The notes beneath the pieces are model-generated. The model was not told where the DNA came from. It saw only the letters and a list, made by a program, of their open reading frames with translations, and made no database searches. A program made the position numbers and the translations under genes. This document shows, in pieces, positions 5,819 to 30,314 of a stretch of DNA of 64,000 nt. Numbering within the stretch: the stretch's first letter is position 1; the number at the start of each line of letters is the position of its first letter. The DNA is taken from IMG/VR virus record IMGVR_UViG_3300021400_001623, positions 16,433 to 80,432 of that record; one strand, 5' to 3'. The stretch is from a virus (taxonomy: Duplodnaviria > Caudoviricetes).

Positions 5819-5835
5819 TTGAATTTATATATTGC

Positions 5836-5860: not shown

Positions 5861-5883
5861 ATAGAGAAAAGGAGTTAATATAA

Positions 5884-6453: not shown

Positions 6454-6459
6454 GGAGGT

Positions 6460-7398
6460 GTGGCGCTTTTGAGCACTTCCTACAATACAATTTATACGTC
6501 TTTTTTATCAAAGATTGTTGATTTTGATTTGCCGGAGTTAACAGATGATGAGTTGAAAACATATTGCAATCGCTTTATGGAGTCTGCCATTATTAAGTTG
6601 CCGGAGATTGTAAATGATTTATCCGAGCGTGAGGTGCTTGAGCCTGAGATTATTACTGAGGTGGAGCCGACTGAGGAAGAAGAGCCTACAGTTGAGACGC
6701 CGGAGGAGCCTGAAGAAAATGGTGGAGAGCAGACAGAGACTATCGAGAAAACAACTTATGTTCTTTATTTAGACGAGTCTGCTTATGGTCGTTTTACATA
6801 TACAGTGCCGGACTTAAAGAAGTTAGTTGCGAATGAATCAAGCTTCACGTTATTTATACGTGTTAGTAATTTTATTAAATTAATCACATTTACACGTGGT
6901 ACTACAGAAACAAAAGATTGTGTGATTCATAATAATTTCTCTTGCACGATTGCTTATGATGGTGTCGATCAATTGGTGTTTTCCAATTTAAGCTCAAATG
7001 CGGTGAATTATAAGTTACTTTATATTACTTATGATACGCCAAATACCGAGCCAGTTGAAGAGCCAGTTGTTGATCCTACCCCCATTACCATTAATGACGA
7101 GATGCAGAATGTTATTGATAACGAGGGCGTTATTGAGGCAGAAGAAGTATTTACTGCCGATTTGACTGGCCTCGAAATAGAGATTATTGCATCTCAGATG
7201 GTCGTTGAGTGGATCAATAATGAGCTAAATAATACTCAATTAACTCGGATGTTTGTTGGTACCAAAGATGAATCAATGTCTTCTCAGGCTAATCATATTG
7301 AGAAATTAACAACTTTGAAAGAAAAGCGTCGCGCGGATGTATCTATGATGATCCGTGATTATGCTTATCGAGAATGGGTTAAGGAGGCGGTACAGTAA
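6460..7398 (+). CDS. Putative head-tail connector with inserted domain
   Basis: Helical N- and C-terminal parts separated by Glu/Pro linkers flanking a beta-rich segment. Confidence 0.5.
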   Translation: MALLSTSYNTIYTSFLSKIVDFDLPELTDDELKTYCNRFMESAIIKLPEIVNDLSEREVLEPEIITEVEPTEEEEPTVETPEEPEENGGEQTETIEKTTYVLYLDESAYGRFTYTVPDLKKLVANESSFTLFIRVSNFIKLITFTRGTTETKDCVIHNNFSCTIAYDGVDQLVFSNLSSNAVNYKLLYITYDTPNTEPVEEPVVDPTPITINDEMQNVIDNEGVIEAEEVFTADLTGLEIEIIASQMVVEWINNELNNTQLTRMFVGTKDESMSSQANHIEKLTTLKEKRRADVSMMIRDYAYREWVKEAVQ

Positions 7399-7706
7399 TG
7401 CACACAAAATATGGAAATTACTCAAACCTCTCATTCTCTGATTATAAGAAATCCCTTATTGACCGTATATGGTGTTTAATTCCTTTGCGCGAAGAGCATT
7501 GCAAAACGATAGATCGCAATGTTGAACGTATTAATCGTGAACTTAATGGTCTACTTACTGTAAGCGGCGTAGAGGATAAATATATTATCACTGTTATTCA
7601 TCTATTAGAGCATTCGGTACATGAAGAAGACTTCTCTGTGTATCGTTCAGACATCCTTCGCTGCTGTGAACTTGTTAAGAAGATCGGCGGTGATGATAAT
7701 GTTTGA
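7398..7706 (+). CDS. Hypothetical neck-module protein
   Basis: 102-aa ORF coupled to neighbours. Confidence 0.6.
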   Translation: MHTKYGNYSNLSFSDYKKSLIDRIWCLIPLREEHCKTIDRNVERINRELNGLLTVSGVEDKYIITVIHLLEHSVHEEDFSVYRSDILRCCELVKKIGGDDNV

Positions 7707-8754
7707 GGAATATAGAAATCGCATGGATCGTCGTGGCGGAAATATTCGTCAAGCAAATCGTAATCAATCCATTAAGATTATGGAAAATAGTTTTGATATA
7801 TCACAAACATATCGCCAGGTTTTTATTGGCAGTGAAGATGGTGAGCCTGTAGATGCACGGATTACTGGAGGTTCAGCGACTACTATTCGTGGTGGTACTG
7901 GTAACTATGAAATTATGTTCCGTGATGGAGTTTATTATCCGGCTGGCACATATGTTTTTGTTGAAGATGCTGAAGGCAAACCGGAACCATGGATGATTAT
8001 GTACATTTCAGATGATGCTATGTTTCCACGACATATTTTGCGCAAATGCAACTATCTACTCAAATGGAAGAATAGTAGCGGCGACATTATTGAGCGTTGG
8101 TGTGTATTCTCAGATAATCAGCGGCTCATTAACGGCGAGCGAAATGTAGATTGGAACAGGTTAATTCTGTCGTCTTATTCTACTGTAATTTACTTACCGT
8201 GTGATCCTGAGACGATTAATGTGAGAATGGATAAACGATTCCTCATCGACCATCCAGATGCTGAAGGTAATCCAGAGGCATGGATTGTCCGTAATAGGAA
8301 TGTTAATTCGAAAATCTTTGATGGATATGATGGTGTAATCGAATTAGCGATTGCACGACATCAATTCAATCATAACACTGATAGCAAGGAATTAATGGTT
8401 GCTAATTATTATAGCGAAACGCCAATACCAGAAGAGTTTGACGATGATAATGAATATGAGATTAGAATTACATATAAAAACTCGCCTGATTTAAAAATGG
8501 ATACTCCATTTAAGAATTATAAAGCGGAATTTCAAGTTAATGGTGAGCCAGATGATACGTTAACGGCTACTTGGGATGTGATTCTAAATGACGAATTTGC
8601 CGATAAATTCACATATGAGTCGGTTGGCAATATATTTAAAATTAAATGTTCATATGATGGGTTGATGATGGGTTCATTCATAAGAATTATTGCTGCCAAT
8701 GAAGAACATGGCATTTCTGCTGAATTGCCCGTAAAGGTGGTGAGTAGTATCTAA
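7699..8754 (+). CDS. Putative head closure/adaptor protein
   Basis: ATG 7699 after GGTGA SD (ORF track starts 7621); neck position, beta-rich. Confidence 0.5.
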   Translation: MFEEYRNRMDRRGGNIRQANRNQSIKIMENSFDISQTYRQVFIGSEDGEPVDARITGGSATTIRGGTGNYEIMFRDGVYYPAGTYVFVEDAEGKPEPWMIMYISDDAMFPRHILRKCNYLLKWKNSSGDIIERWCVFSDNQRLINGERNVDWNRLILSSYSTVIYLPCDPETINVRMDKRFLIDHPDAEGNPEAWIVRNRNVNSKIFDGYDGVIELAIARHQFNHNTDSKELMVANYYSETPIPEEFDDDNEYEIRITYKNSPDLKMDTPFKNYKAEFQVNGEPDDTLTATWDVILNDEFADKFTYESVGNIFKIKCSYDGLMMGSFIRIIAANEEHGISAELPVKVVSSI

Positions 8755-12818: not shown

Positions 12819-13829
12819 ATGGTTAAACTTCCCCCAATAACTCAGGAGGAATGGGAAAAGTGTAATGAATGGAATAGAAATATTATGGAGGAGTTCCTAG
12901 CCAATTCATTCCATTTATCACAAAAAAGCAAAAAGGCGTATCGGTCAAATCTTATGATTTGGTTTAATTGGGTGCGGCAAAATTTACATGATAAACCGCA
13001 ATATGAAATTAAACCGCTGGATTACCTTAAATATCAGAGCTGGCTTCTCTCTATGGGGCACAGTTCATCTGATGTGGATAGTAAACGTGCGGCGATTTCA
13101 TCGTTATGTAATTATATTGAAATGTATTATCTCGATGAATTTCCAAATTTCAGAACTTGTATTGCGCGCGGTATGAGCCGCCCGGTTAAAAAATTGGTTC
13201 ATGAAAAAGAACCACCGACTAAAGAAGAAATGGAAATGCTATTCCGCGCTCTTGAAGAACGTGAAGATTGGCAAAAGCTCGCATATTTACGCTATACATA
13301 CGACACTGGATGCAGGCGTGCTGAGAGTATCCAGCTTCTTAAAGAAGTGGTTGATTACAAGCCTATTGAAAAGGTCGTTAAAGTTAAAGATGAGAATGGC
13401 GATGAAAAGGAAGTTGCGATCAAATATTATCGTAGCAATCAAACGCGCTGTAAAGGACGCGGTGAAACTGGCAAAGTGCGTCGCTTAATATTCTCTCAAG
13501 AAACTATGGACGCTATAAAAAAATGGCTTGAATATCGTGGCGAAGATGATTGCCCTTATGTATTTGTGTCGCGCCAGAATGGAGAAGTCCAACAATTGAG
13601 TGAGAGCGCATTAAATAAGTGGTCTTCTGGTTTATTTACTCAACTATTAGGACGCAGATTTCATCCGCATATTTTGCGCGAAGCTCGCGCTACTATTGGT
13701 GTTGTTGAAGATGGTAAATCTGCTGAAGCTATGCAAAAGCTTTTAGGGCATGAATCCGTTGAAACTACTGTGAACCATTATATTATCAAAGAAGATGACG
13801 ATGATGATATCGATGAGCTTTTCGTCTGA
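12819..13829 (+). CDS. Tyrosine recombinase (second, not att-associated)
   Basis: TGCRRAE, CKGRG, HPHILR, LLGHES, NHY catalytic set. Confidence 0.85.
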   Translation: MVKLPPITQEEWEKCNEWNRNIMEEFLANSFHLSQKSKKAYRSNLMIWFNWVRQNLHDKPQYEIKPLDYLKYQSWLLSMGHSSSDVDSKRAAISSLCNYIEMYYLDEFPNFRTCIARGMSRPVKKLVHEKEPPTKEEMEMLFRALEEREDWQKLAYLRYTYDTGCRRAESIQLLKEVVDYKPIEKVVKVKDENGDEKEVAIKYYRSNQTRCKGRGETGKVRRLIFSQETMDAIKKWLEYRGEDDCPYVFVSRQNGEVQQLSESALNKWSSGLFTQLLGRRFHPHILREARATIGVVEDGKSAEAMQKLLGHESVETTVNHYIIKEDDDDDIDELFV

Positions 13830-16470: not shown

Positions 16471-19237
16471 ATGCCAGATATTAAAACAAGAGTGTTGGCC
16501 GATACTTCACAAGCCGCTAAAACTATAGAAGATTTTTTATCAAAATATAATAATCGTGTTATTAATTTAAGAGTTAACGCGATTACAAAGGGTTCACTTG
16601 CTGGTGTTACAAAAGGTCTGAAACCTATTAAGAAGATGGTGGCTGAGGCTGGTAAATTTAAAGTTCAGCCAATGATGGATAGTAGATCTGTAAAATCAGT
16701 ACGAAAAGGGTTAAAAGAACTTCAGGGTGCACAAGTTAGATTATTTAAGGATCGTGAAACGCAGCGTAAATATCACGAGACTATGGATCGTGCAGCCGCC
16801 AAGGATGCTAATAGAATTGCAGATCAGCAAACCAAGCATTATAGAAACAATCTTAAAGAAAGGGTTAAGGATCATAAACAGGCTGCAGCTCAACAGGCTA
16901 AAATAACTGAGGCGTCTGAAAAAAAACAAGCTAAAATATCTGAACAAATTCAAGAGCAATCAGATAAGAAGAAAAGCAAAAAACGTAAGGCAGCAGCCAA
17001 GGCTGAAGCTAAGCAAGCTGAGCCAAAAGCAAAAAGTAAAAATGCCGCAGAACAAAAAAGAAGTTCTGCCAAACAAGTAAATGAAAAGGCTGCAGCAGCA
17101 AGACGCTTAAAGGAAGTTGAATCTGCTTGGGCTGAGCGAAGAAAAATTTTAGAGGCAGAGTATGCCGCTCGTACAAAAGCTGAAAGTAAAGCGGCTGAAC
17201 AAAGCATTAAAACAAATCGCAAGAAAAATGAACAAATAGCTCGTGATAATAAAAAGGCGGCTACAGCCGCAGCTGCTGCTCCACCGGGAGGCGGTGGCCC
17301 TTCAGAACCACCTAATAAAACTGTTGCTAAAGCGCGTCAGGAAGTTAATAAAACTCTTAAAGATCTGGATAATGAAATAGCTCGATATGACAAAATGCTG
17401 GAAGGCCCGCATCGTGATTTTATGAATCCTGATGCGAAACGAGCACTAAAAGAAGAACGTCAAGCGTTGCGTAATCGTAGGCGCAATGCTAGAAATTTAC
17501 GCAAGGAACTTCTTGGTAGACCAGATGACACTGTTATTGATAGTAAACTTGCGAGACGGGTTGATCGTCATACTGGACGTACTAAGACTGGTATTAGTGA
17601 CGCTAGCACAGTTCGTGCTGAAAACGCTGATTATGTAAAAAGTGCTATTGGCACGCAAAAGGCGCGAGCTGCTGAAGCAAAAGCAGCACAGAAAGCAGCA
17701 GAAGATGCAGCGGCAGCTGAGAGGAAAACCGAACGTAAGGCTTTTGAGGATCGTTTGGCTAGACACGCTGCTGAAAAAAAAGAACGTGAAAAAGCGATTC
17801 AAGAGCGTTCAAAGCAAGCACAGAAAGAAGGTTGGGCTGAATATCATGCTGCTGAGCAGCGCATGAAACGTCAGCAGAAACTCACACAAAATGCGGCTGA
17901 TGAAGAACGTGCTCAACAAAAGCAGCGTAATCGTGATGCGGAAAATATTCGCAAGCAAGCTGAAAAGGATGCTCGCTCTATTTATAATCGTGGGAATGAG
18001 TTAGATAGACGGACTGGAAAAGGCGGCGAATGGGCTGGGTTATTATCTGATAAAGATATTGCTAAGCAGAAAAAGCTTGTTTCTGATACCCTTGAATTAG
18101 ATAAAAAGCTTGCCACTTTAAGAAACGCAACAGCTGGTCGAAATGTTACAGCGGCCGAATATCAAGAAATGGAGCGTCTTGGTGCCGCTATTAGTAATAA
18201 TAATGCTTTGATGAAGCATTATGATAAAACTAATCAAAGTCATATAAAGACTGCTAAGGCCGAGCTTAAAGTACAAGAACAGAATCAAAAGGCATGGGAT
18301 AAACAGGCTGAAACATATCGCAAACAGGCTGTGACCAATGCGCGCAATATTCAATCGATGTCGCGCACGTTTAGTAATAATACTGGGCGTGGTGGTGCAT
18401 GGGAGAATATGCTTACGGAGCAGCAAAGACAATCTTGGCAAAAGCAAATGGCTAGTGCGACTCAAGCCAGACAGGAGCTTGCTCGGTTAAACACACAGAC
18501 TCAAGGCCGGAATGTTACGCAGTCACAAGCCGATGAATATAAGAAGTGGGCAACACAACTTAATACTGCAAAAACAAATCTTCAAGGTTTAACTAAAGTA
18601 TATACCGATCATGTCAAGGCTTTGAACGGCCCGCAAAACGCGGCGATTTTCTACGATAAGTTGGCTGCTAAGATGTCCGATTATAATGCAAAATTCGGGC
18701 ATAATTTACAACGCAACCAGCGCTTAATGGATCAATTCAATACCTTGCAGATGCGCGCGAATAATGGCGACTTCGCAAATATTGGAGAGGCTAATCGTCA
18801 ATGGGCTACATTCCGTACCGAAGCGCGTAAGGCTGGCGTTGAAATCGATTCTTTTGGTTCTAAACTTCAAAGGACATTTGGTTCCAGAGTGAGATCCGCT
18901 ACGGCGGGTATGGGCGTTTATATGATTCAAAGCGCATTGCGCGGAATTGTAGAGAATGCCAAAGAAGTCGATACGGCGATGACCGAGTTAAAGAAGGTTA
19001 CTACTGGAACTGATAAGACTTACGAAGATTTCTTAACTAATGCTGGAACGCGCGCACAAACTCTTGGTGCGACGCTTCAGGAAACGGTAAGTGCAACAGC
19101 AGATTTTGGTCGTCTCGGATATAACATTGAGGATGCGACAAAGTTAGCGGATAATGCGCTTATCTATCAAAATGTCGGTGACGATATTGAAAGCATCGAT
19201 GAGGCGTCAAAGGCGCTTATTTCAACGATGCAAGGGT
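16471..19237 (+). CDS. Tape measure protein exon 1
   Basis: TMP core motif EVDTAMTELKKVT...ALISTMQG; ends at T19237, the 5' splice site of intron 1. Confidence 0.85.
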
Positions 19238-20301
19238 TAATTAAAGCTCTTGTAAAACAGGGTGAATTGCTGGAACATCCTTAGAGCTCTAATACTACAA
19301 CGTGGTTGGAAACGACGAGCGTGACAGTGTGAAAAATTAGAGATTGGACAATCAGCAGCCAAGGGCCGTATAGGTCAAGGTTCAACGACTAAAGCAGATG
19401 CTTGTAGGGTGGAAGTCCACTCGAAGTGCCCTGCTCTTTTTATTTTAAAGAGAAGATATAGTCTAATCTCGCATGAAAATGTGAGCAGTATATATATCAT
19501 GGGAAGGAGTATATGTGGATAATTATTGTGTTTATATGCATATCTTCCCCAACGGTAAAAAATACATTGGTATTGCTAAAGAGGATAGATTGTTAAAAAG
19601 ATGGGGGTCTAATGGTGACGGATATCTCAATAATAGACAATATGCTATTGAAAATGCAATACGTAAGTATGGTTGGGAGAATGTGCGTCATGAAATTTTA
19701 TTATCAGGTCTTTCAAAATCTGAAAGTAAAATAGCTGAAATTCAATTAATTAAAAAATATAACACTTTTGGTGTTAATGGTTACAACATGACACCTGGTG
19801 GTGATGATCGCACGTTTATGTATGGAGCTAATAATCCATCGTCTCGGCCAGTCATATATCAGAATAAAGAATATGCAACTATGAATGATTTTTGCAAAAC
19901 ATTCAATCTCAAGATGCCTACGGTATCAATGTGGTTAAATGGGAAAGAGCCAATGCCAAAGATATATTACGAAAACGGACTACATTTTAAAGGCGAAGGA
20001 ATGAATCATTTATATGTGCAGAACGGACATCCATCTGGGAAAAATTCACCAACTGCAAAAGCTATATATTTTAATGGCGTGAGATATGACACATTAAAAG
20101 AATTTTGTAAGCATTATGGTGTTACAAAAGATACAGTACGCGGATGGACTATTGGTAGGACGGCTATGCCACGTTATTTTTATGATGGTAACTTGCATTA
20201 TGAGGGTGGCGATCTATCTTTAGCTAAGCGTAGTAAAGTTAAAAATAAATTTGATGATATATATACGAGGCTGAATTAACGACTCAGCCTGAATATACAT
20301 G
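19238..20301 (+). mobile_element. Group I intron 1 (IA2-like) with homing endonuclease
   Basis: P aattgctggaa 19265, Q aatcagcag 19350, R gttcaacgacta 19380, S aagatatagtct 19453; P1 gcaagggT/Gctcttgt with U.G; P9.0 AT/AT; terminal G20301; splicing gives QG-F-GIEAENS. Confidence 0.93.
19515..20279 (+). CDS. GIY-YIG homing endonuclease with two C-terminal repeat DNA-binding modules
   Basis: CVYMHIFPNGKKYIG motif; SD GGAAGGAG; lies in loop closed by perfect 13-bp stem 19488-19500/20254-20266. Confidence 0.88.
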   Translation: MDNYCVYMHIFPNGKKYIGIAKEDRLLKRWGSNGDGYLNNRQYAIENAIRKYGWENVRHEILLSGLSKSESKIAEIQLIKKYNTFGVNGYNMTPGGDDRTFMYGANNPSSRPVIYQNKEYATMNDFCKTFNLKMPTVSMWLNGKEPMPKIYYENGLHFKGEGMNHLYVQNGHPSGKNSPTAKAIYFNGVRYDTLKEFCKHYGVTKDTVRGWTIGRTAMPRYFYDGNLHYEGGDLSLAKRSKVKNKFDDIYTRLN

Positions 20302-20763
20302 TTGGTATAGAAGCTGAGAATAGTACTTCTATTGTAGATAAATTTAATGAGGTTGCGAATAACTATGCTTCCTCAGCCGGAGATATCGGCCAAATCACTC
20401 AGCGAAGTGCTGCGGCTATGTCGGCGGCAGGCAACTCCTTAGACCAGACAATAGCTTTGGGAGTTGCTGCGAACGAAGTTCAGCAGGATGCTGATACAGT
20501 GGGTACGGCTTTAAAAACCATGAGCATGCGGCTAAGAGGTTCTAAGACTGACATGGAGTCCATGGGCCTCGACACGGAGGGTATGGCAACATCCGTATCT
20601 AAACTTCGTGATGAAATATTAAATTTATCCGGCGTTGATATAATGCTGGACGAAAATACATTTAAATCCTCTTACGATATCCTTATGGGTATCGGAGAGG
20701 TGTGGGATGGTCTAACAGATATTAATAGAGCGAATATCACCGAATTGTTGTTTGGCAAGAGAC
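20302..20763 (+). CDS. Tape measure protein exon 2
   Basis: Open frame GIEAENSTSIVDKFNEVANN...ELLFGKR. Confidence 0.88.
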
Positions 20764-21112
20764 GAACAATTGTCTCGATATACGGTGACGTATATTGTAA
20801 AACACATCTAATTGCAGGAACCTCCTTTTGGGACAATCTGCAGCGAAGCAAGCTACGGCTTGAACGTTCAACGACTAGGGAAATGTCATCCCGTACAGCA
20901 TAAGCTAATGATGCTGGAAATGGTGTGCCCAGCTTAACGCTGGTGAAGAAATAGTCTGATCTGCGGCGAAAGTCGTAGGAGTTAATGATTTATATATACT
21001 GATACAGATTCTTGCGCGCCTCTTAACAATGCGTACCATGTGAGGGTTGCTATAAGATATTTTATTAAATCATTGACCGGCGTGGATTTGCGAACCACGT
21101 TGAACATAAATG
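20764..21112 (+). mobile_element. Group I intron 2 (IA2-like), ORF-less
   Basis: P aattgcaggaa 20810, Q aatctgcag 20835, R gttcaacgacta 20866, S aagaaatagtct 20946; P9.0 AT/AT; terminal G21112; splicing gives GKR-Q-ANIG. Confidence 0.9.
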
Positions 21113-21429
21113 AAGCCAATATCGGTACAGCCATCCTACAAAACTATGAGCGTGCTCAAGAAATTCTTGAGACCTCGCAAAATTCTGAAGGTAGTGCCCT
21201 CCGCGAAAACGAGGTCTATCTGAACTCTATTCAGGGTCACATTGATCAGTTGATCGCTAAGTGGCAGACATTCTCTGTTGCCCTTGCCGACTCTTCCGGC
21301 TTCAAGGCGATCATTGACGGCATTGGCGGCGTAGCCAATGTTCTTACTGGATTGATCAACGCTTTTGGCCCTGGGACCATGTTAGCAACGCCGCTTATGG
21401 CGATGCTATCCAAAACTTCAAACTCTGGT
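21113..21429 (+). CDS. Tape measure protein exon 3
   Basis: ANIGTAILQNYERAQEILETSQNSEGSALRENEVYLNSIQG...KTSNSG. Confidence 0.85.
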
Positions 21430-21856
21430 AAAGTTTTAAATATGCCCTCTTACGGTGTAAACCGTAGGATGTGGGCGGCTTAATATCGGCCGCCTAAGAG
21501 AACTCTCAAATTGCTGGAAAAAGCTAAAGCTCGCGAGCCAAAGCGGAGTTGGAAACGACAAACGTAATGGCGTGGAAACACGAAAAAATCGCGAGATGGT
21601 ATATGCTGAGAAAAAAGCGTATTCTATTTCCTCCAATAGTACTTATATTTTGATACTATTGGAGGGAATAAAGTATCGTGCTAAGTACCATTCAACAATG
21701 CTTAATCAGCAGCCAAGTCCCCTACCCCATCGGGTTCGCGGAAAGGTTCAACGACTGTAAGGGAGTTACCAGCTGGTCACTGGTTAATAGACAGTCTGAC
21801 CTATAGCGAAAGCTATAGAGGGTAGTTAAATGCTACCCCGCCATAATTGAGTATAT

Positions 21857-21897
21857 AAAAAAGGAAGGCGTTGCACGGGAGGTTCCGATCAACGCCT
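21857..21897 (-). terminator. Terminator of the intron-nested antisense gene
   Basis: On - strand aggcgttg...caacgcct then tccTTTTTT. Confidence 0.75.
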
Positions 21898-21963
21898 AAT
21901 ATATTGTTCATGAAAACAATTCATGATGTGGATATTATACAGCATAAAGATTACAAAAGCAAA

Positions 21964-22509
21964 TTACTTGCCGGGCTCCCATTGGTGACCGCAGTTTTGG
22001 CAGACGTTGAGGACTTTATTCGCCCCTACTGCTCCAGCCAAAGCACCTTCGGGACCAGCAGCAATTACGCCAGCGACAGCTTTGCCTACACCAAAACCTT
22101 GTTTCACTGTGGATATGGATTGAGAGCCACATTTGGGGCAAGAGACTATACCTTGTTGCTTATTCATATATGATTGAACTGCAGTTGAACCAGGGTTTGG
22201 TTCCATGCCGCATGCGCGACGAGCAATGCGTTTTTCATCTTCATATTTCGCAGGAATAAGCTTGGTATTGTTTGGATTTTCGACATATTGTTCCCAAACA
22301 GCTTTATACATGTCATAAGTTAGAGCTCTAATGGTATCTGGTCGTCTTCCATGAATTTTATATGAATCTAATTCTTCATATGTGATTGTTGTTGGCAATA
22401 ATTTAGGCCCTATAATTGGTGTACTTTTACAAATACAATGTTTTTGTTGCATGTAGTCACTGCGATCTACAACGCGCCCACAGTATGGGCAATAATACAA
22501 ATATCCCAT
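21964..22509 (-). CDS. Zinc-ribbon protein with glycine-rich hydrophobic hairpin, nested antisense in intron 3
   Basis: SD GGAGG 8 nt before ATG 22509; CPYC, CPKC-(GFGVGKAVAGVIAAGPEGALAGAVG)-CQNC. Confidence 0.8.
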   Translation of the reverse strand: MGYLYYCPYCGRVVDRSDYMQQKHCICKSTPIIGPKLLPTTITYEELDSYKIHGRRPDTIRALTYDMYKAVWEQYVENPNNTKLIPAKYEDEKRIARRACGMEPNPGSTAVQSYMNKQQGIVSCPKCGSQSISTVKQGFGVGKAVAGVIAAGPEGALAGAVGANKVLNVCQNCGHQWEPGK

Positions 22510-22530
22510 TTTATATACCTCCATATATAT

Positions 22531-22539
22531 ATTATATCA
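22531..22539 (-). promoter_or_regulatory. Extended -10 sigmaA promoter of the antisense gene
   Basis: TGATATAAT on - strand about 10 nt upstream of the SD; no consensus -35. Confidence 0.6.
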
Positions 22540-22577
22540 TATGGTATTTGAGTTATGGTTATTAAAGTAACAGTGTG

Positions 22578-25500
22578 TTATTTCAAACTGTAGAACAGAT
22601 TAATGCAAAAACCGGAGATTCAAGGCAAGTATCTCAAAACTTTATTTCTGCTAGAAAAACAAAGGCAGCAACAAATGCATATTATTCAGACAAGAATAAT
22701 CAATATGCTTTGCAAGATATGTCTCGTGCTAGACGAGATATGGAGCATGCGGAACGTCTAAGGGCTAGAGGTAATGCGGCTGGTGCAGCTGAAATTGAAG
22801 CTAAAGCCATTAAGGATTTAGATACTGCTTATCAAAAATTAGATGATACTGGTAAAAAATATGGTAATCAGATAAAGGATCGTAATACAGATTTATCAAA
22901 GCATCAAAAAATTATAGCAGACTGCAGTGAAGCAACTGATAGAATGGCGCAATCTCAGGGCAAATTAAGGAGTGGATTTGCAGCATCTACTATCTCAATG
23001 GCTAAAAATATTGGCGCAACAATGGCTATTGGGACTGCTATTGACCTAACTATGAAGGGTTTTGATACGCTTGATAAACATTTCCTTCTTACTGCCAATG
23101 CACAGAAAACTGCAATGAAAGATGTTGTAAGTGAGTATAAGGCCAGTACTGATACTTACACAGAAAATATAAACACAATTAATTCATTATCTGATGAATT
23201 TACAACTCTTTCTAAAGGCGTTGATGCGCATGGTAAAAATATTAGCCTTACAGCCGAACAATATGCTCGGTACAATGAGATTGTCAGCCAACTCGTTGCT
23301 ACTTCGCCACAATTAGTTAAGGAGTATACTGCGGAGGGCAATGCTGTCGTAGATCGCAACAAGGCTATTCAAGAGGCTATTGATCTGCAAGAGTCTTATC
23401 GTCGCAGCGCTGTTGCAAAATATACTTCTGATGATAGCATGCGAGCAATTCGTCTTGGATCTGCTGCAGAACGTCGTGAGATTCAGGCTGACATGCAATC
23501 CGCGGCAACTGAGCTCGATAAGCTTATGGGCGAAGGGACTGGTCAACGACGCACCACTTCTGCTTTTGGCTTAACTAAAGCTGGCGCTTCTACAGAAATT
23601 AAAGCAGTTAAGGAAATTAACGATGTTTTAGGTGAAAATGTTGATTTAGAAAATGCTTCTGCGGCTACGTTATTGCGTATCGCTGAGCGTCGCGATGAGA
23701 TAATCGGGAAAGTGGAAAAATCAACACAATATACCGATAAAGAAAAGCAATCTATTAAAGATTCCTTGTCGACCATTTCAACTTTAGCTCCGGATTTAGA
23801 GGCAACATATCAAAGCACTATAGACGCATTACAGACATATGTGTCTAGTGCAGATGAAACAGGCGTTTCTATCGCATCCTCTTTGCCAGAAAGTATGCAG
23901 GAAAGTTATGCTGCTGGTTTAAAGAAAATAGCGATGTCTGGTCTTGGAGATGCAGAAATGAAAACTGCTGCCAAGGATTTGGTGACGGATTTACAAAAAA
24001 TCTATTCATCAAATGAAGGCGGCTTTAGAGATGCTGAACAAAACGTTGAGAATGCAAAAGAAAAATTCCTTGGTAGCGCAAGAGATAAAAATGCGGTTAA
24101 GGAATATAATGATAGTATTAAAGAATCTATAGGTACAATTGATCAGTTAGCGGAAAGCTATCGAGCTGCTGGCAATGATTTTCTTGCTGATGCATTAGAT
24201 GCGCGTTCATTAGAACTTGCTGATTTTGGGCAAGAAAACATCCTCACCCTTGCAGACGCCTTCAACCCCCTCATCGACAAAATAACAGAAGCGCGTACCG
24301 TCAAAGAAAAATTTGACGCAGCGATGGCTGGCGGTGACTATGATACCACCGTTAATAGCTATAAAGAAATGTACGACTCCATGATGGATGGTTACAACAA
24401 TGCTGGTAACGGTACACAAGGTTTCTGGAATTTTGCTGAGCTGACTCTTGGACAAACAGCGCTTAAAGATTTTGGCTATGACATAGATGCTGTTAATGCG
24501 CGACTCAAAGAGCTTGCTCCTGTCATGGAGAAAACTGAATCTGGAACAAATGCCTTCTTCGATCTTCTTGCGGCTAATCGCGATAAACTTAATGAGATCG
24601 AAGGCGTAACGATTGCGGAAGATGGATCGTGGGATATTCCAGCTGAAAAGTATGGTGAAGTTGCACGACAGCTTGGTATTGCCGAAGACCTTTTAGTTGG
24701 TTGTGTTGATAACGCTCGCCACTGGGCGGACGTTAAGCTTTGGGATAGTCCTCAGAAAGCTGTTAAAGCCATCAAAGATATGGATACCACCTTCGAAAGT
24801 GCCGAAGGCAAAGCTTATGCATTTTACGATACCGTGGCGCAGCAGGCGCAACAAGCTGGTTTAAGTGGACAAGAGTTTACCGAATATATGGACGAAATCG
24901 GTAAAAAGGTTGAACTTATTGATCTTAGCGCTCTTGATTTTGATCCAAATACCACAGAGGGCACTAAAAAGATCAACGCATTAGCTAATCAACTCACAAA
25001 TATGAGTGATTTGGTCGGCACCAATGGCAAGCTCGATTTAACAGGCACCATAGCTATGTTTAAGCAGATGGGTGCAACTGCCGATCAAACAACGCACGCC
25101 CTTGAAAAATTCCGTGAGAACGGTAATTTAGATATTGGCGAAGGTGTTGATATCGGTGATACGGTTACCCAGGCATATGGAGAGTTAGAGGCTAACGATC
25201 CATTCGCTAAAATGACAAGTTCAGTTGATGGCTTACATAATGCTATTAACCAGTTGATTTCGGCCATGGGGATGGTGCCTGAAGACTGGATGAATTTAGA
25301 TGGTATTAACCAGCAAATTAAAGGTCTAGAAGCTGCTGGCGACAAAATCAAACAATCAGATATTGATGCTGCCCAAGCAGAAATTGATGAGAAAAGAGCT
25401 AACTTGGAAGCTGCAAGGTCATCAACGACAGACACTGATGAACTTACTAAGATTAATAATACAATTGCAGCCCTAAATCAACAGCAAATTGCTTTAGATC

Positions 25501-28500
25501 AATTACGTGCACCATTAGAAGGATACACGAATTTACTGCAACATGCTGCGGAGACCGGAGATCAAATAGGTTCTGACGGTCAGTTAGATCAAACACTTCG
25601 AGATATTGGTGAAGCAGCACAAAAGAGCGGCCAAGATGTTGATCAATATATTGGTTCGATTGCGAAAAATCGGCAAGAAGCTGACAAACTTCGTCAGGCA
25701 TATCATCAACTTGAATCTCAAACAGCTGTAACTGATGCCACTTCTTCTGTTGCTAATGGAGCCAAACAAGCAGTTGATTCTGCGAAAACTGCTGTACAAG
25801 GTTTAATGTCTGGCTTTGGACGTACTGAAGCCGACGTAGATGTCAATGTTGATGACTCTGAAGTTGATGACGCCGAGGAAAAAGTTGATGATCTTGATGG
25901 CAAAGATGTCGATGTTAATGTTGAGGCTAGTGCAAGAGGACTTGATAGCACCTTGAAGCAGATTGATGGGCTTAGTGATGAAGATCGTAAGACTGTTGTG
26001 GATGCTTATGTTAAGGTACATCAAGAAGGTGAAGACCCTCAAGTTTTACAAGATGCTATTAATGCGTTGCCGGACAATAAACAGACTATTGTCGGTGTTA
26101 CGGTTAATGATGCTTCCGCTAGTTTAGAGGCAGTGCAAAGTGGATTGGATAATGTTGAAGCAACTACTCCGTCTCCGACAATTGCTGCAACAGATAATGC
26201 GACAAGCGTTATTAATAGCGTACTAGGTGCTTTGGCTGCTGCTAACGGACGAACAGCAACTACCACAATTACTACTCGTCATGTCACTAGTTATGAAACT
26301 ACAGGGACTCCTCCTAGTAAATACGCTGGAACTCCGAATCGTCGCGTCCCCTCTTTATACTCTGGTTCTGATAATCGTCGCCGTGCTGGTTCAGCAGCTA
26401 AGGGCGGTAAACTTGGCCCTCACGGTAAAGGTGGCCTTACCCTCACTGGAGAACTCGGCCCAGAATTAGTCTGGCTGCCGGATGAAGATACTTCATTCCT
26501 TACTGGTGTTCGTGGACCAGAAATGCGGGTACTTCCTGGCAATGCGGTTGTCTGGCCTTATGAAGAGACCAAACGCATCTTTGGCGGAACGGTATCTGCC
26601 GGGTATTTAAATACGCGGAATGCTTGGTCTAAGAAGCAGCTTAATAATTATTTAGGCGGTTCTTCTGCTCGTGGCGCAAATTATCAATTTGGATCGGCTA
26701 AAAAGGGCAGCAAGAAGAAAAAATCTTGGAGCGACTATTCGGATAGAATAGATTTTAACTATGATATCGAGAAAATTAGCGAAGAAACGTATTATAAGCA
26801 GTTAGTTAAAAAATATAAAAAAGTAAAAAAGAAATTAACTGGATCAGAGAGACGTAACGCCAGAAAAGCTATTCACGATGCTTATGCTCAGATGCTTGAT
26901 GCAAAAGTTGAGAATTTGGACTTTGCACAAGATATGGATAACATCGATGCCGCACAATATTATACAAAATTGGCGGCATTAGCTTCTAAATATAAAAGAA
27001 AAAGTAAAAGAGACGGTAAATATACCAAAGAATATCGTGATTATCAGCTTAAACTTAAAGAAGCTGCCGATGCAATCTATGAGCGTGAAAAGTCTCAAAT
27101 TGACTTTATGCTCAATCTCGGGGTTAATAAATCTGGTACGAAAACCTATAACGCCGTCGATGCATATAAAGATCTGCAAAATTATTTAAGAAAAGCAATT
27201 TCCGGTAAAGTAACTTCCAATACAAGTACAAAAACTTTAACTAGCGCAAGCTATGCAAAGAAATTCTTATATACCGGGACATCTAACCGTCGTCAGCCAA
27301 TTCGCTCGATGGCACGCGGTAGTGGTAGAATTGGTCCTGCTGGTCGTGGCGGATTAACATTAACTGGTGAATTAGGTCCTGAATTAGTATGGCTTCCGGA
27401 TGATAATTTGTCGTTCGTAGTTGGGCTTTATGGGCCAGAAATGGTGGATTTACCAAGTAATGCAGTTGTGTGGCCTAACGATGAAACACAAGCTATTTTT
27501 GGTGACACTGTTAATTCTAGTTATCTTGAGCCAACAGATGCACTTACTTATGAAGAGTTGGAATACTTAGAATCATTATTATCTGGATCAGTTGCCAATG
27601 GCGCTAATCTTTTTGGTTCTTTGTCTACTGGTAAACGTAAAAAGACAACAACTAAAACAACTAAAACAACTAAACGACCAGCGAAGTCAACTAAAAAGCC
27701 AAAGAAAAAGAAGAAGAAAACTAAGAAGAAAAAAACTAAGAAGAAAAATAAAGCTAAAACTGGAATCATTAGCTCGATTAAAACATCGTCAAAACTTATA
27801 TCTGGTGTTAATAAGGGAAAATCATCTAGTTCAAAGAGTAATACAGACAATACTTGGAATGCTATGTCCGAGGAAGAGCGTCAGCAATTACTCGAAGATC
27901 TTAAAGAGGCGCGACAAGACGCATATGATTATCAAAATGATACTTTTGAGCGTATTCTTAACAATTCATTCTCAGATGATTGGAACGCATTGAATAAATA
28001 TTTAGTCGATGCACAGAAGAATTTAAAGACACTAAACGAGCTACAGGATTCAGATAAAATCATTGAAGCACGTCAACAAATTGTTGATACTTTCTTTGAT
28101 AATTTAAATGAAAAGTTTGATGATGTTAAAGAAAAGATTTCTGACAATGATCTGTTTAATTCTTGGGGCGATGGCGAATCTGCGCTTACTTTATTAATGC
28201 AATATAAGGCGCAATTAGAAACTATTTACGCCGCAAATAAAGATGCACTAGGAAAAGATACTGATGCAGCAAAACAATATTTGAAACTCATCAAGGAAGT
28301 GAATCGTGAATTAGTTAACGCTAAAGCGGAGGCTAAAGATAAGTACGATGATATTTTCCAATTAGTTGAACAGTTAGTTCGTCAGGAAAAGAAAGATCTT
28401 ATTGATGCCTTAGAAAAGCAGAAGGATAAGTATGATGACATCATTGCTAAGAAAAAAGAGAGTTTACAGTTAACTGAAAATGAGCTTGATTATCAAGATC

Positions 28501-30314
28501 AGTTATCTGATTATGCAAAGCAAGAGGCTAAACTTCGTACGCAAATAGCATCTCTTTCGCGCGATACGAGCCGCGAGGCCAAGGCGAAGCGCGCCGAGCT
28601 TCAAGAACAGCTTGATCAGTTATTGGTCGAGAAGAACCGTACTGTGCGGCAGGAAACTATCTCTCGTACGAATGATGCGCTTGACAAACAGCAAGAATCT
28701 TATGGTGATTTTATTGATAAATTAACGGAATCAATAAATGCTGTTTTAGATAATCAGGAAGCTGTAAATGCACTTGTATATGATGCATTGGATAATCGCG
28801 ATACGAATAATTTATTACAAAGATTATATGATTATAACGCTGAATATGGTGACGGTTTAATCCAAACGGTTGAAGAGTGGCAGATGGATCTGAATGATAT
28901 CGTTGAGAACGAAATTTATAAGGAACTGAAATATCAAACAGAAGCATTGCGTGCAAGCCTAATTAATGAAGTTGGCTATGGCGATGATGAACACAAGGGC
29001 AAGTTTACCGACGACGTTACTTCCTGGAATAATGAGACTATTAGTAGGTTCTTATATTCGTTCGATCAGCTGTCTGATAAGTATTTCGATGAAGCGAAGT
29101 TGTTAGACACTATTATTGAGAAGTACGAAGAATTAATTAAAAAGTTTGACGCGCTATGGTTTGGTGATTCTTCTGGCCAAGTTGATGCGACATCTAAGAT
29201 TCGTATGGCAAATGCTTATAAAGCTCAGGTTGAAAGTGCTGAAGCAACTGTGCAAACTGCAGCTGGACAGGCTGATGATGCATTAATTGCTGCTAATACT
29301 GCTAAAGCGCAGGCTGAGGCAGCAAAGTCGGAAGCCGACGCAAAGAAGGCGGAGGCAGATGTCGCAAATGCAAATTTAGATGCAGCAAAACAAAAAGTAG
29401 CAAATGCACAAAAACAACTTCAAAGCGATAAAGCGGCATATAGTAATGCGGAAAAGAACGTTGTTAATGCTAATAAAGCTTTAGATAGTGCACTTAATGC
29501 AAGGGATAAGGCCGCAAGTAAAGTGGCAAAGATGCAGAACGCTTTGGAGACGGCTAAGGCAAAAAGTTATAAGAGTAAAGAAGCGCGAAGTAAAGCTATT
29601 GCTAAGGCAAAAGACAATCTTGCCGCTGCAAAATCAGCTTATACAACAGCTAATAAAAATGTAACAACTGCAAATGATAATGTAAAAAAGCAGCATCAAA
29701 ATCTCGTAGAAATTGATAAGAAAATCGGTAACGACATTAAATCAATTGAAAGTGCACAGGCTGCAGCCGCAATTGCTGAAAAAGAAGCTGCAGCTGCTAC
29801 GCAAGTATGGGAATCTTTCTTAGCGGCGCAACGTGAGGCCGAAGTGAACGCAAAGTTAGCCATGTACCAATATGATGCTATGGCTCAAAATCTTGCTAAT
29901 GCGACACAGGAGCTTGAGATAGCTAGGGAGCGCTTTGAATCAGCTAATACTGCGTTATTGAACGCAATGGATAATGACGTTATTGTTCCATCATACAATA
30001 TTTTAAGTGATGCGGCGCAATCACTTGATGGTGTATTATCGACTTTTGCAAATACTAATCTAGTTTCTGATGAAATTATGGCTGGGATTGCATCGTTGGG
30101 TGCAAGTGTAAATACTACGAATCAAGCTAATAATTCACCACAAACTTATTCGTTTAATATGCCATTCACAGTTACTGTAAATGGTAATATGTCTCAAGCA
30201 GATCAGGCTAAATTACAGTCTGACTTATCCAATGCCGTTTATAATGGTTTGTATAATGCATTACAGATGAATGGATTAGCAACTTCTACATCTGCGAATG
30301 CCTTAAAGAATTAA
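22578..30314 (+). CDS. Tape measure protein exon 4
   Basis: Long helical ORF with no SD before its GTG; joins exon 3 in phase 0 (SG-LFQ); spliced CDS 11283 nt = 3760 aa. Confidence 0.85.
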   Translation, partial: LFQTVEQINAKTGDSRQVSQNFISARKTKAATNAYYSDKNNQYALQDMSRARRDMEHAERLRARGNAAGAAEIEAKAIKDLDTAYQKLDDTGKKYGNQIKDRNTDLSKHQKIIADCSEATDRMAQSQGKLRSGFAASTISMAKNIGATMAIGTAIDLTMKGFDTLDKHFLLTANAQKTAMKDVVSEYKASTDTYTENINTINSLSDEFTTLSKGVDAHGKNISLTAEQYARYNEIVSQLVATSPQLVKEYTAEGNAVVDRNKAIQEAIDLQESYRRSAVAKYTSDDSMRAIRLGSAAERREIQADMQSAATELDKLMGEGTGQRRTTSAFGLTKAGASTEIKAVKEINDVLGENVDLENASAATLLRIAERRDEIIGKVEKSTQYTDKEKQSIKDSLSTISTLAPDLEATYQSTIDALQTYVSSADETGVSIASSLPESMQESYAAGLKKIAMSGLGDAEMKTAAKDLVTDLQKIYSSNEGGFRDAEQNVENAKEKFLGSARDKNAVKEYNDSIKESIGTIDQLAESYRAAGNDFLADALDARSLELADFGQENILTLADAFNPLIDKITEARTVKEKFDAAMAGGDYDTTVNSYKEMYDSMMDGYNNAGNGTQGFWNFAELTLGQTALKDFGYDIDAVNARLKELAPVMEKTESGTNAFFDLLAANRDKLNEIEGVTIAEDGSWDIPAEKYGEVARQLGIAEDLLVGCVDNARHWADVKLWDSPQKAVKAIKDMDTTFESAEGKAYAFYDTVAQQAQQAGLSGQEFTEYMDEIGKKVELIDLSALDFDPNTTEGTKKINALANQLTNMSDLVGTNGKLDLTGTIAMFKQMGATADQTTHALEKFRENGNLDIGEGVDIGDTVTQAYGELEANDPFAKMTSSVDGLHNAINQLISAMGMVPEDWMNLDGINQQIKGLEAAGDKIKQSDIDAAQAEIDEKRANLEAARSSTTDTDELTKINNTIAALNQQQIALDQLRAPLEGYTNLLQHAAETGDQIGSDGQLDQTLRDIGEAAQKSGQDVDQYIGSIAKNRQEADKLRQAYHQLESQTAVTDATSSVANGAKQAVDSAKTAVQGLMSGFGRTEADVDVNVDDSEVDDAEEKVDDLDGKDVDVNVEASARGLDSTLKQIDGLSDEDRKTVVDAYVKVHQEGEDPQVLQDAINALPDNKQTIVGVTVNDASASLEAVQSGLDNVEATTPSPTIAATDNATSVINSVLGALAAANGRTATTTITTRHVTSYETTGTPPSKYAGTPNRRVPSLYSGSDNRRRAGSAAKGGKLGPHGKGGLTLTGELGPELVWLPDEDTSFLTGVRGPEMRVLPGNAVVWPYEETKRIFGGTVSAGYLNTRNAWSKKQLNNYLGGSSARGANYQFGSAKKGSKKKKSWSDYSDRIDFNYDIEKISEETYYKQLVKKYKKVKKKLTGSERRNARKAIHDAYAQMLDAKVENLDFAQDMDNIDAAQYYTKLAALASKYKRKSKRDGKYTKEYRDYQLKLKEAADAIYEREKSQIDFMLNLGVNKSGTKTYNAVDAYKDLQNYLRKAISGKVTSNTSTKTLTSASYAKKFLYTGTSNRRQPIRSMARGSGRIGPAGRGGLTLTGELGPELVWLPDDNLSFVVGLYGPEMVDLPSNAVVWPNDETQAIFGDTVNSSYLEPTDALTYEELEYLESLLSGSVANGANLFGSLSTGKRKKTTTKTTKTTKRPAKSTKKPKKKKKKTKKKKTKKKNKAKTGIISSIKTSSKLISGVNKGKSSSSKSNTDNTWNAMSEEERQQLLEDLKEARQDAYDYQNDTFERILNNSFSDDWNALNKYLVDAQKNLKTLNELQDSDKIIEARQQIVDTFFDNLNEKFDDVKEKISDNDLFNSWGDGESALTLLMQYKAQLETIYAANKDALGKDTDAAKQYLKLIKEVNRELVNAKAEAKDKYDDIFQLVEQLVRQEKKDLIDALEKQKDKYDDIIAKKKESLQLTENELDYQDQLSDYAKQEAKLRTQIASLSRDTSREAKAKRAELQEQLDQLLVEKNRTVRQETISRTNDALDKQQESYGDFIDKLTESINAVLDNQEAVNALVYDALDNRDTNNLLQRLYDYNAEYGDGLIQTVEEWQMDLNDIVENEIYKELKYQTEALRASLINEVGYGDDEHKGKFTDDVTSWNNETISRFLYSFDQLSDKYFDEAKLLDTIIEKYEELIKKFDALWFGDSSGQVDATSKIRMANAYKAQVESAEATVQTAAGQADDALIAANTAKAQAEAAKSEADAKKAEADVANANLDAAKQKVANAQKQLQSDKAAYSNAEKNVVNANKALDSALNARDKAASKVAKMQNALETAKAKSYKSKEARSKAIAKAKDNLAAAKSAYTTANKNVTTANDNVKKQHQNLVEIDKKIGNDIKSIESAQAAAAIAEKEAAAATQVWESFLAAQREAEVNAKLAMYQYDAMAQNLANATQELEIARERFESANTALLNAMDNDVIVPSYNILSDAAQSLDGVLSTFANTNLVSDEIMAGIASLGASVNTTNQANNSPQTYSFNMPFTVTVNGNMSQADQAKLQSDLSNAVYNGLYNALQMNGLATSTSANALKN

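Follow-up and report, generated by a model that had tools for sequence, protein, structure and literature searches.

An opposite-strand zinc-ribbon gene within a group I intron of a phage tape measure gene: a candidate moron-style unit

The group I introns of phages T4 (td, nrdB, and sunY), SPO1, and Twort carry looped-out homing endonuclease ORFs. In these introns, a helix closes off the peripheral loop with the ORF so that the ribozyme can still fold, and the presence of the intron varies among relatives. To our knowledge, phage group I introns are usually viewed as selfish elements, with homing endonucleases as their only passengers. In IStrons (CdISt1 and BcISt1), the cargo, an IS200/IS605-type transposase module, mobilizes the entire element. 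In addition, prophages of the Bacillus cereus group have the group I introns TMP-IVS1, TMP-IVS2, and TMP-IVS3 in their tape measure genes (Tourasse and Kolsto 2008, PMC2504315). They were described with homing endonuclease genes, remnants of these or no ORF, and many of them lack a complete homing endonuclease gene (PMC2504315). Furthermore, nuclear rDNA group I introns (e.g., L2066) can contain antisense His-Cys box endonuclease genes (PMC9548176). Meanwhile, phage HK97 carries the moron gp15, which acts in superinfection exclusion (Cumby et al. 2012, reviewed in PMC3594210). The gp15 protein is small and membrane-associated, and it acts in a manner dependent on the tail region of the incoming phage (PMC3594210).

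Here we analyzed a stretch of 64,000 nucleotides (the window; all positions refer to it) from the Caudoviricetes record IMGVR_UViG_3300021400_001623. The phage is a temperate gut phage resembling SPbeta and Clostridium phage c-st, with an integrase encoded at 54998-56158 and a tape measure protein of about 3760 aa. Intron 3 of the tape measure gene holds an opposite-strand gene for a double zinc-ribbon protein. Like the ORFs of the T4, SPO1, and Twort introns and that of intron 1 in the same gene, this ORF lies in a helix-closed peripheral loop, and the intron is present in some relatives only. However, it differs from them in its strand, in its own predicted promoter and terminator, and in the lack of nuclease motifs, and the loop in relatives also takes a lysis cassette and other genes. 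As in IStrons, foreign genes are placed between the group I core and the 3′ splice site, but intron 3 contains no transposase.

The TMP-IVS introns are likewise phage-type introns of subgroup IA, occurring several per tape measure gene and at the same site in different phages. However, no opposite-strand, independently promoted, non-endonuclease gene was described in them (PMC2504315), and we found no sequence relationship between them and intron 3. The antisense rDNA introns share with intron 3 a protein gene opposite to the ribozyme strand, but they are eukaryotic and their endonuclease genes are expressed by RNA polymerase II, whereas the unit here is a predicted bacterial sigma-70-type unit for a non-nuclease. 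Like HK97 gp15, the gene is a self-contained unit in a tail operon adjoining the tape measure gene. However, gp15 is a YebO-like transmembrane protein with no sequence or fold relationship to the zinc-ribbon protein; the unit here lies within the tape measure coding sequence, in an intron, and exclusion is only proposed for it. In our literature search, we came across no report of a phage group I intron with antisense cargo other than an endonuclease gene.

Intron 3 and its loop

Sequence comparison confirmed that 21430-22577 on the + strand is a group I intron, the third in the tape measure gene, with a length of 1148 nt and a terminal G22577 (table 1). The Rfam cmscan search matched RF00028 at 21426-21818 (+; model positions 1-253) with 71.1 bits against a gathering score of 50, and two further group I introns were found alongside at 19151-19485 and 20744-20978 (RF00028). 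The ORF of intron 1 is a GIY-YIG homing endonuclease (phrog_314, E 4e-22), in agreement with the sequence-only reading from which this analysis started. About 170 nt are inserted at P5 in the core of intron 3, and the nucleotide identity of this core to that of locus L001 is about 92-96%. Homologous introns were found at the same site in L001, L003, L011, L013, L038, and L041, and the tape measure gene of L010 lacks the entire insertion.

Table 1. Features of intron 3, its flanking exons, and the antisense gene (window coordinates)
Feature	Position	Strand	Details
Tape measure exon 3	21113..21429	+	last codon GGT (Gly), with U21429 at the 5′ splice site
Ribozyme core, P1 to P9, and P9.1 hairpin (21820-21838)	21430..21840	+	cmscan alignment
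Internal guide sequence	21432..21446	+	P10 strand 21432-21443; P1 strand GCC 21444-21446
Closing helix, 5′ strand	21841..21854	+	pairs with 22544-22558
Intrinsic terminator (predicted)	21855..21896	-	hairpin 21867-21896, then UUCCUUUUUU (T-run) on the - strand
181-aa ORF	21964..22509	-	ATG at 22509, stop at 21964
N-domain of the 181-aa protein	residues 1-118		C7, C10, C25, C27; variable Cys4 domain
C-module of the 181-aa protein	residues 119-181		C124/C127, Gly/Ala-rich loop 138-165, C170/C173
Antisense expression signals	22518..22539	-	extended -10 TGATATAAT 22539-22531; SD GGAGG 22522-22518
Closing helix, 3′ strand	22544..22558	+	upstream of the antisense promoter
Tape measure exon 4	22578..30314	+	2579 codons; first 12 nt are the P10 target; continuous alignment with L010
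Hypervariable N-terminal segment of exon 4	22578..23000	+	about 140 codons (alignment)

The exon sequences define the join. In tblastn comparisons with L001, L003, L010, L011, and L013, exon 3 homology covered residues 25-130 of the ORF at 21040-21429 and stopped at 21429. It ended at the identical residue in L001, L003, L011, L013, and L022, and the L010 protein ran on uninterrupted. The 21429/22578 join reads SKTSNSG|LFQT in frame, and the intronless L010 has SKTSNSGLFKT across the same point; the joined exons aligned with L010 without a break (residues 25-511, 44% identity, E 1e-111). An alternative join, U21424/G22575, is also in frame and was rejected, as it would remove the Ser-Gly kept in L010. 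Translation of exon 4 from its own start, which the sequence-only reading had named as evidence against splicing, found no counterpart: the first 44 codons contain no SD-backed start codon in the window, and the same holds for the first 44-56 codons in L001 and L005. Exon 4 also carries a lytic transglycosylase-like region resembling SPbeta YomI (YomI-type matches).

The guide sequence is invariant in the window, L001, and L003, and it is complementary to the intronless L010 allele. P10 (21432-21442 with 22579-22589, 10/11 paired) is stacked on P1 in canonical geometry. It has 11-12 of 12 pairs in L001, in L005, and against the L010 allele, and 10 bp in L011, that is, 10-12 bp in all copies. 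P1 has just 3 bp (GGU 21427-21429 with GCC 21444-21446, a U21429-G21444 wobble and two G-C pairs). Exon bases further 5′ of P1 vary, and the guide sequence stays constant. Longer P1 helices through AAACU/AGUUU or AAAACUU/AAGUUUU hairpins, or through a GCCCUCU guide, were rejected because they lack a U-G wobble at an in-frame site or conflict with the variation of the exons; GCCCUCUU was assigned to an extended P2 and not to P1. Thus, the intron, the in-frame join, the terminal G, and the P10 pairing proposed in the sequence-only reading all held. The 2-bp P9.0 (AC with GT) that it had also cited adds nothing, since the pair is not conserved: the two bases preceding the terminal G are GU in the window, UA in L001, and AA in L003.

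The 14-bp closing stem proposed earlier also received support. Its duplex has -13.0 kcal/mol in the window, and only 2/300 shuffles were as stable. The values were -14.2 in L001, -13.0 in L003, -16.9 in L011, -21.4 in L013, and -19.8 kcal/mol in L038, each with 0/300 shuffles. The 3′ strand differs between loci and the pairing is retained. The helix is conserved in these six loci, and the enclosed loops range from 0.7 to 3.3 kb (0.69 kb in the window). The comparison of loci, which the sequence-only reading had suggested, found differing cargo in the same loop: L011 has an additional holin and CHAP endolysin, L038 an additional DUF4379/CapR/DUF723 endonuclease-like ORF, and L013 two additional ORFs without assigned function. 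These sequences showed that, after P9/P9.1, a predicted long-range helix closes a loop with room for 0.7-3.3 kb of additional DNA. An intron of an essential virion gene of 11 kb is here an insertion-tolerant bay, which in relatives takes even a holin-endolysin cassette.

The antisense gene and its relatives

The loop contains a complete predicted opposite-strand unit, namely an extended -10, a ribosome-binding site, the 181-aa ORF, and a hairpin terminator. The TGATATAAT box is identical in L001, L013, and L022; other loci have -10-like boxes, and GGAGG-type sites always follow. The terminator is identical in L001, L003, and L004, and L005 has a compensated outer stem and retains the inner CGGAACCUCCCG. 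A simple terminator scan missed the hairpin at 21867-21896 because of its long loop. The promoter, ribosome-binding site, and terminator are conserved in at least 8 loci, distant ones included, and the self-contained unit seen in the single sequence is thereby borne out in relatives. The predicted transcript overlaps neither the ribozyme core nor the splice sites. As in morons, the gene has its own promoter and terminator and is missing in some relatives (L010 lacks the insertion).

The 181-aa ORF is very probably a real gene with the two-part architecture given in table 1. Its homologues have 40-59% identity and start with MGY(I/L)YYCP, so the assigned start is correct. The full-length profile of phrog_2546, which comprises phage proteins of unknown function, matched residues 6-178 at positions 16-179 of 180 (E 2.1e-21). 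In the C-module, amino-acid identity is 98-100%, third codon positions are only 47-65% identical, and dN/dS is about 0-0.02. Recent recombination was rejected as the cause of this conservation because the synonymous sites are saturated. In the homologue alignment, only Cys, Gly, Tyr, and Asn occupy fully conserved columns, and conserved Asp, Glu, and His are absent. The homologues in L011 and P0036 lost the C-terminal cysteines and kept the Gly-rich stretch.

Besides phrog_2546, searches of Pfam, PHROGs, and NCBIfam gave generic zinc-ribbon matches only. No signal of GIY-YIG, HNH, LAGLIDADG, His-Cys, PD-(D/E)xK, or EDxHD was found in these databases, and the profile searches thus agree with the sequence-only reading, in which no homing endonuclease motif had been seen. 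That reading had also described a LITAF-like layout. The order of CxxC, Gly-rich insert, and CxxC is indeed present, as in LITAF/SIMPLE-like proteins. However, the insert is Gly/Ala-rich and only moderately hydrophobic (top 19-residue Kyte-Doolittle mean 1.39), and zf-LITAF (PF10601) scored 15.5 bits, below the cut-off of 23.8; residues 108-163 of P0037 weakly match PF10601 positions 5-65 of 70. The AlphaFold2 model had a pLDDT of 67, with the Gly-rich loop below 40. Foldseek searches against PDB and ESM Atlas and a VIA-align wide search returned generic zinc ribbons (TFIIS, Rpb9, and NrdR), the best of them weak (Z 3 or less, TM below 0.45), and a profile search against PDB sequences gave nothing below E 0.1. 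In addition, PADLOC gave no match to defence systems, NCBIfam was uninformative, and no PHROG annotated as exclusion or defence matched the protein.

The zinc-ribbon gene is the constant resident of the loop, next to the 3′ splice site, in 10/10 independent loci with readable context. The contexts read were those of the window, L001, L003, L004, L005, L011, L013, L037, L038, L040, and L041, and in every one the gene is antisense and adjoins tape measure exon 4. Across very divergent phages, the gene stays with the intron site, and in these 10/10 loci its family was found at no other position. The intron had been regarded as a neutral landing site; this is partly supported, as other cargo in the loop does vary, but the wording understates the link between gene and site.

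Relatives of the N-domain are rare: only 10 were found among 1.84 billion representative proteins, and all have the same architecture. A DNA and protein search of the reference phage collection found no close relative; the only matches were to the C-module, in phages Maintenon and SMO_1P. In Maintenon, the homologue immediately precedes the tape measure gene. It is encoded on the late strand, a sign that part of the family may be late proteins. The SMO_1P homologue belongs to the lysogeny module, where it is flanked by an HTH protein and the integrase. In L007, the gene is antisense and outside introns, with the tail chaperone genes on one side and the tape measure gene on the other, the same slot as that of HK97 gp15. 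These three cases link the family to tape measure genes or lysogeny outside introns. Meanwhile, the tape measure genes of L018-L027 are interrupted at the same residue, starting with GGT|AAA, and no group I core was found there by Rfam even at E 10. Their proteins are linked to the zinc-ribbon family only through the C-terminal ribbon (hhalign, probability 99.5%).

The N-domain and the first 140-165 codons or so of exon 4 make up a single hypervariable island, in which phages with 96-99% identity elsewhere differ from one another. For instance, L003 and L004 are 96-99% identical except for about 1 kb, which comprises the N-domain, the promoter/3′ splice region, and the first 165 or so codons of exon 4. 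The same pattern was found in L001/L041 and L026/L019, giving three independent pairs in total. The hypervariable segment of exon 4 ends at a conserved hydrophobic stretch, S-T-x-(A/S)-M-x-x-N-I-G-A-T-(M/L)-A-I-G. The behavior of the variable protein half and of the tape measure segment next to it resembles that of an arms-race locus. The swapping of the island between near-identical phages lends indirect support to the earlier proposal that the gene is locked to its tape measure allele. The divergence of the N-domain and that of the exon 4 segment were not significantly correlated across loci (Spearman 0.11, P = 0.47), and adjacency between conserved flanks could suffice for their joint exchange.

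Possible roles of the intron-borne gene

The best explanation as a whole, to which we give a probability of roughly 0.55, is that this is an intron-borne moron-style gene encoding an exclusion-type factor linked to the tape measure protein. In this explanation, the host sigma-A polymerase would transcribe the gene independently of late tape measure transcription, in the prophage or in early infection. Such independent, non-late expression is fairly probable. Through the ribbon loop, the protein would sit on the cytoplasmic side of the membrane, and the odds of membrane association are about even. The variable N-domain would give specificity for a phage component, most plausibly the hypervariable tape measure segment beyond the splice site, and the protein may be an exclusion or defence factor whose step of action is DNA entry or the formation of the tail channel. 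We propose such an action on the tape measure protein only tentatively. Owing to the intron, the insertion would do no harm to the tape measure gene, and the zinc-ribbon gene would stay in tight linkage with the variable segment. Against the moron reading, genes so strictly tied to one intron site more typically serve the intron; against an exclusion role, there is no homology to known exclusion or defence proteins and no informative fold match. If the protein does act on tape measure-dependent DNA entry, the locus would be a testable model for the co-evolution of exclusion specificity and its target, and also a model of how ribozymes enable accessory genes inside coding sequences.

The hints for the membrane come from relatives. 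The ribbon follows true transmembrane helices in L007 and L014 and has a 21-residue hydrophobic loop in L016 and L017, and the matches to zf-LITAF are weak. The ribbon inserts range from 13 residues up to true transmembrane length. Since the short-loop relatives lack a long hairpin, membrane insertion cannot hold for the whole family.

A further step is a doubtful one, namely that the intron is a linkage device for a specificity pair, in which the N-domain and the first 140 or so residues of exon 4 co-diversify. The antisense protein would be an exclusion or defence sensor, and the exon 4 segment would be its target or a determinant of self-exemption. Both halves flank the 3′ splice site and would travel together between phages as one cassette. 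If this is true, a prophage immunity-like system would be written inside a self-splicing intron of the very gene it acts upon.

Two other roles are improbable, in about equal measure. First, the zinc-ribbon protein might be a factor of the intron itself, i.e., a new homing endonuclease, a mobility helper, or a maturase, which would explain why the gene never leaves the intron site. Zinc ribbons often bind nucleic acids, and a maturase would help a ribozyme whose 3′ splice site sits 0.7-3 kb from its core. Gene and intron site occur together in 10/10 loci, most copies have no other ORF, and intron presence varies among relatives (L010 has none). In addition, the core is far less diverged than the exons, as expected for a mobile element, and nuclear rDNA group I introns offer a precedent for homing endonuclease genes in antisense orientation (PMC9548176). 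However, no nuclease family was matched, and the set of conserved residues contains no Asp, Glu, or His. The most constrained part is the Gly/Ala-rich loop, which is present too in transmembrane-anchored proteins outside introns and was kept in L011 and P0036 when the C-terminal cysteines were lost. Furthermore, L038 has a separate endonuclease-like ORF, and the gene is predicted to have its own promoter and terminator and not to be expressed from the intron RNA.

Second, the protein might be a tail-assembly or ejection accessory working with the tape measure protein in the lytic cycle, for instance a chaperone or partner of its variable segment, and not be expressed from the prophage. Relatives are repeatedly found beside tape measure genes (on the late strand in Maintenon, in L007, and at the intron sites), the island joins the N-domain to the neighboring tape measure segment, and both proteins contain Gly-rich hydrophobic stretches. 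However, every intron copy is antisense with a sigma-70-type extended -10 and its own terminator, L010 has a homologous tape measure gene without the zinc-ribbon gene, and the SMO_1P homologue sits in the lysogeny module.

Finally, it is highly improbable that there is no splicing and that separate tape measure polypeptides are made, with the antisense gene in an intergenic gap beside a decayed intron: the short P1 and a GTG overlapping the 3′ splice site would fit this, but the core is strongly conserved and above the Rfam threshold, P10 is kept in all copies, L010 is uninterrupted across the exact join, and the conserved first 44-56 codons of exon 4 contain no SD-backed start (window, L001, and L005). 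For genome annotation, "split" tape measure genes with a backwards ORF between the parts may be single spliced genes.

Boundaries of intron 3 in the tape measure gene

Three group I introns were detected by Rfam within the broken tape measure protein (TMP) gene (see table), and the ORF of intron 1, previously taken for an endonuclease, was confirmed as a GIY-YIG homing endonuclease. For intron 3, the homology of exon 3 ended at 21429 in five relatives. The sequence-only reading had proposed that joining 21429 to 22578 restores the frame. This was borne out by L010, a 116-kb viral contig whose uninterrupted TMP gene reads SKTSNSGLFKT straight across the site. The join brings SKTSNSG to LFQT, and the joined exons matched L010 in a single alignment (44% identity, E 1e-111). 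In addition, exon 4 opens with 12 nt that pair with the guide at 21432-21443. The proposed P10 pairing (10/11 in the window) extends to 11-12 bp in the related contigs L001 and L005, and likewise against the L010 allele, which has no intron. P1 is short (GGU/GCC). G22577 was retained as the terminal base; the proposed 2-bp P9.0 pairing was not conserved among loci.

We also considered exon 4 as a separate gene with its own start. Its first 44-56 codons are conserved in the window, L001 and L005, and no SD-backed start codon was found within them at these three loci. Since these conserved 5′ codons have no such start, splicing would be needed for exon 4 translation.

After P9 and the P9.1 hairpin, CCAUAAUUGAGUAU (21841-21854) pairs with 22544-22558 (-13.0 kcal/mol, matched by 2/300 shuffles). 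This closing helix, first drawn from the window, recurs in five further loci (L001, L003, L011, L013, and L038; -13 to -21 kcal/mol, 0/300 shuffles each), and its 3′ strand differs among loci with the pairing kept.

Features of the TMP introns and related loci (window coordinates unless a contig is named)
Feature	Position or size	Strand	Remark
Group I introns in broken TMP gene	19151-19485, 20744-20978, 21426-21818		Rfam
Antisense gene, extended -10 box	22539-22531	-	TGATATAAT
Antisense gene, ORF	ATG 22509, stop 21964	-	SD GGAGG
Antisense gene, terminator	21896-21855	-	hairpin and U-run
Enclosed loop, window	0.69 kb
Enclosed loop, L011	2.4 kb		extra: SPP1-type holin and CHAP/PG-binding endolysin, sense strand
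Enclosed loop, L013	3.3 kb		extra: two sense ORFs, no assigned function
L011 intron	L011 4260-7155		111-kb viral contig; same TMP site as intron 3
L011 holin, SPP1-type	4681-5130	sense
L011 CHAP/PG_binding_1 endolysin	5143-6054	sense
L038 458-aa ORF	6735-8111	-	between intron core and closing helix
L003/L004 replaced island	L003:1930-2905
Tyrosine integrase	54998-56158		phrog_1, E 1e-63

The antisense gene and other cargo of the loop

The cargo differs among L011, L013, L038, and the window, so cargo swapping, for which the sequence-only reading had suggested looking, is real. The L011 intron also contains two antisense ORFs, and its perfect closing helix of 13-14 bp (4690-4704 with 7099-7111) encloses all four ORFs. 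This would be a lysis cassette within a self-splicing intron. In L038, the helix encloses the antisense gene alone. The 458-aa ORF of L038 probably encodes a homing endonuclease; it has three DUF4379 treble-clef fingers, CapR and DUF723 domains, and a C-terminus weakly resembling DUF2726.

The antisense gene lies 56-131 nt from the exon 4 start, in antisense, at every locus with readable context (the window, L001/2, L003, L004, L005/6, L011, L013, L037, L038, L040, and L041). The upstream core, Rfam-detected or sequence-homologous, was found wherever the contig extends far enough. Furthermore, a search of the N-domain (residues 1-118) against 1.84 billion representative proteins gave 10 matches of 120-212 aa, identical in architecture. 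Because of this constant position and shared architecture, the gene is the constant resident of the loop and not a random passenger. The proposed neutral landing site for cargo is only partly supported: the other genes differ among loci.

The gene had been described as a self-contained opposite-strand unit, and its signals recur across loci. The -10 box itself recurs in L001, L013, and L022 (the last a distant locus), with -10-like boxes elsewhere; the terminator is conserved among relatives and compensated in L005. Within the terminator hairpin (21867-21896), the inner CGGAACCUCCCG is kept even where the outer stem is swapped for compensating pairs (L005). The hairpin may have a second role in the sense-strand intron RNA, as a peripheral element.

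B. cereus-group prophages also have TMP genes interrupted by group I introns (PMC2504315). Nuclear rDNA introns likewise carry antisense genes, but these are homing endonuclease genes (PMC9548176). Our literature search found no published phage group I intron with an independently promoted, non-endonuclease antisense gene, and none carrying a lysis cassette.

Variation and possible role of the antisense protein

A full-length match linked the protein to phrog_2546 (E 2e-21), and some ten relatives from metagenomes, also full length, share 40-59% identity with it. Its C-terminal 60 residues show 98-100% amino acid identity versus 47-65% at third codon positions (dN/dS 0-0.02). The N-terminal 118 residues share 28-46% identity for any two loci, and retain Y5, Y6, C7, C10, G11, the second Cys pair, and a YV-IPSN-KL motif. 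No nuclease motif was found, in agreement with the sequence-only reading. PADLOC gave no match, and fold searches gave no informative match.

L003 and L004 share 96-99% identity in the intron core, C-module (the C-terminal zinc ribbon), and distal exon 4, versus 45-68% over about 1 kb covering the N-domain, the promoter/3′ splice region, and exon 4 codons 1 to ~165; dS is 0.10 in the C-module versus 1.15 in the N-domain. For L001/L041, identity is 97% in distal exon 4, 28% in the N-domain, and 42% in proximal exon 4. The pattern is repeated in L026/L019 of a distant clade (L026:2711-5988). In these three pairs, otherwise 96-99% identical, the replaced island runs from the N-terminal part of the antisense gene across the 3′ splice region to exon 4 codon ~140-165, and it ends at a conserved hydrophobic TMP stretch. 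Each locus has its own allele of the N-domain and of the proximal exon 4 segment. Across loci, the divergences of both parts were not rank-correlated, so co-evolution is not established; the comparison supports joint hypervariability and joint exchange only.

The distant clade (L018-L027, IMG/VR phage contigs of 100-220 kb) has the TMP gene interrupted at the same residue, between GGT and AAA. The antisense genes in these multi-kb gaps encode proteins with a homologous C-terminal ribbon (hhalign probability 99.5%) whose loop is 15 residues shorter. Rfam searches with a cutoff as loose as E 10 detected no group I core there. The ribbon gene of L024, L025, and L027 has an in-frame stop and its N-terminal part is missing.

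Membrane association is suggested because in L007 and L014 this ribbon comes after genuine transmembrane helices, and in L016 and L017 it encloses a 21-residue hydrophobic loop; weak LITAF-like matches point the same way. The loop of the window's protein is only moderately hydrophobic. In L007, a 36-kb phage, a gene with an N-terminal transmembrane helix and the same Gly-rich ribbon (5857-6456) lies outside any intron, in antisense, with tail chaperone-like genes on one side and the TMP gene on the other. The exclusion moron gp15 of HK97 occupies the equivalent slot (PMC3594210). Two phages also have the ribbon module outside introns: Maintenon, directly 5′ of its TMP gene, and SMO_1P, within the lysogeny module. 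We tentatively propose, with a probability of about 0.3-0.35, that the protein is prophage- or early-expressed, membrane-proximal, and acts on a TMP-dependent step. The main rival readings, an intron mobility or maturase factor and a partner of TMP in the lytic cycle, each seem improbable.

Source phage and possible further interrupted genes

The IMG/VR record is 80 kb and estimated as ~50% complete. Its content (genes for head and tail, endolysins, a distal tail protein resembling Dit, and a tyrosine integrase) points to a large temperate siphophage infecting uncultured gut Clostridia as the most likely source. The relatives compared are all metagenomic contigs, and the sole genome-collection match with a full-length homologue was a Clostridia MAG.

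There are two more tyrosine recombinase genes (window 12819-13829, +; G000 3343-3846), one of them situated among the structural genes. The group I core motifs AATTGCTGGAA and GGTTCAACGACT have exact copies at 50130 and 51178 (+), 1 kb apart within a 947-aa tail-fibre ORF (48829-51672); Rfam reported nothing around them, and they could be chance or a remnant. In addition, the ribonucleotide reductase large subunit (58865-61156, -) occupies two adjoining ORFs, 59975-61156 and 58865-59935; these correspond to consecutive portions of phrog_84. This split could be a further interruption or a frameshift.
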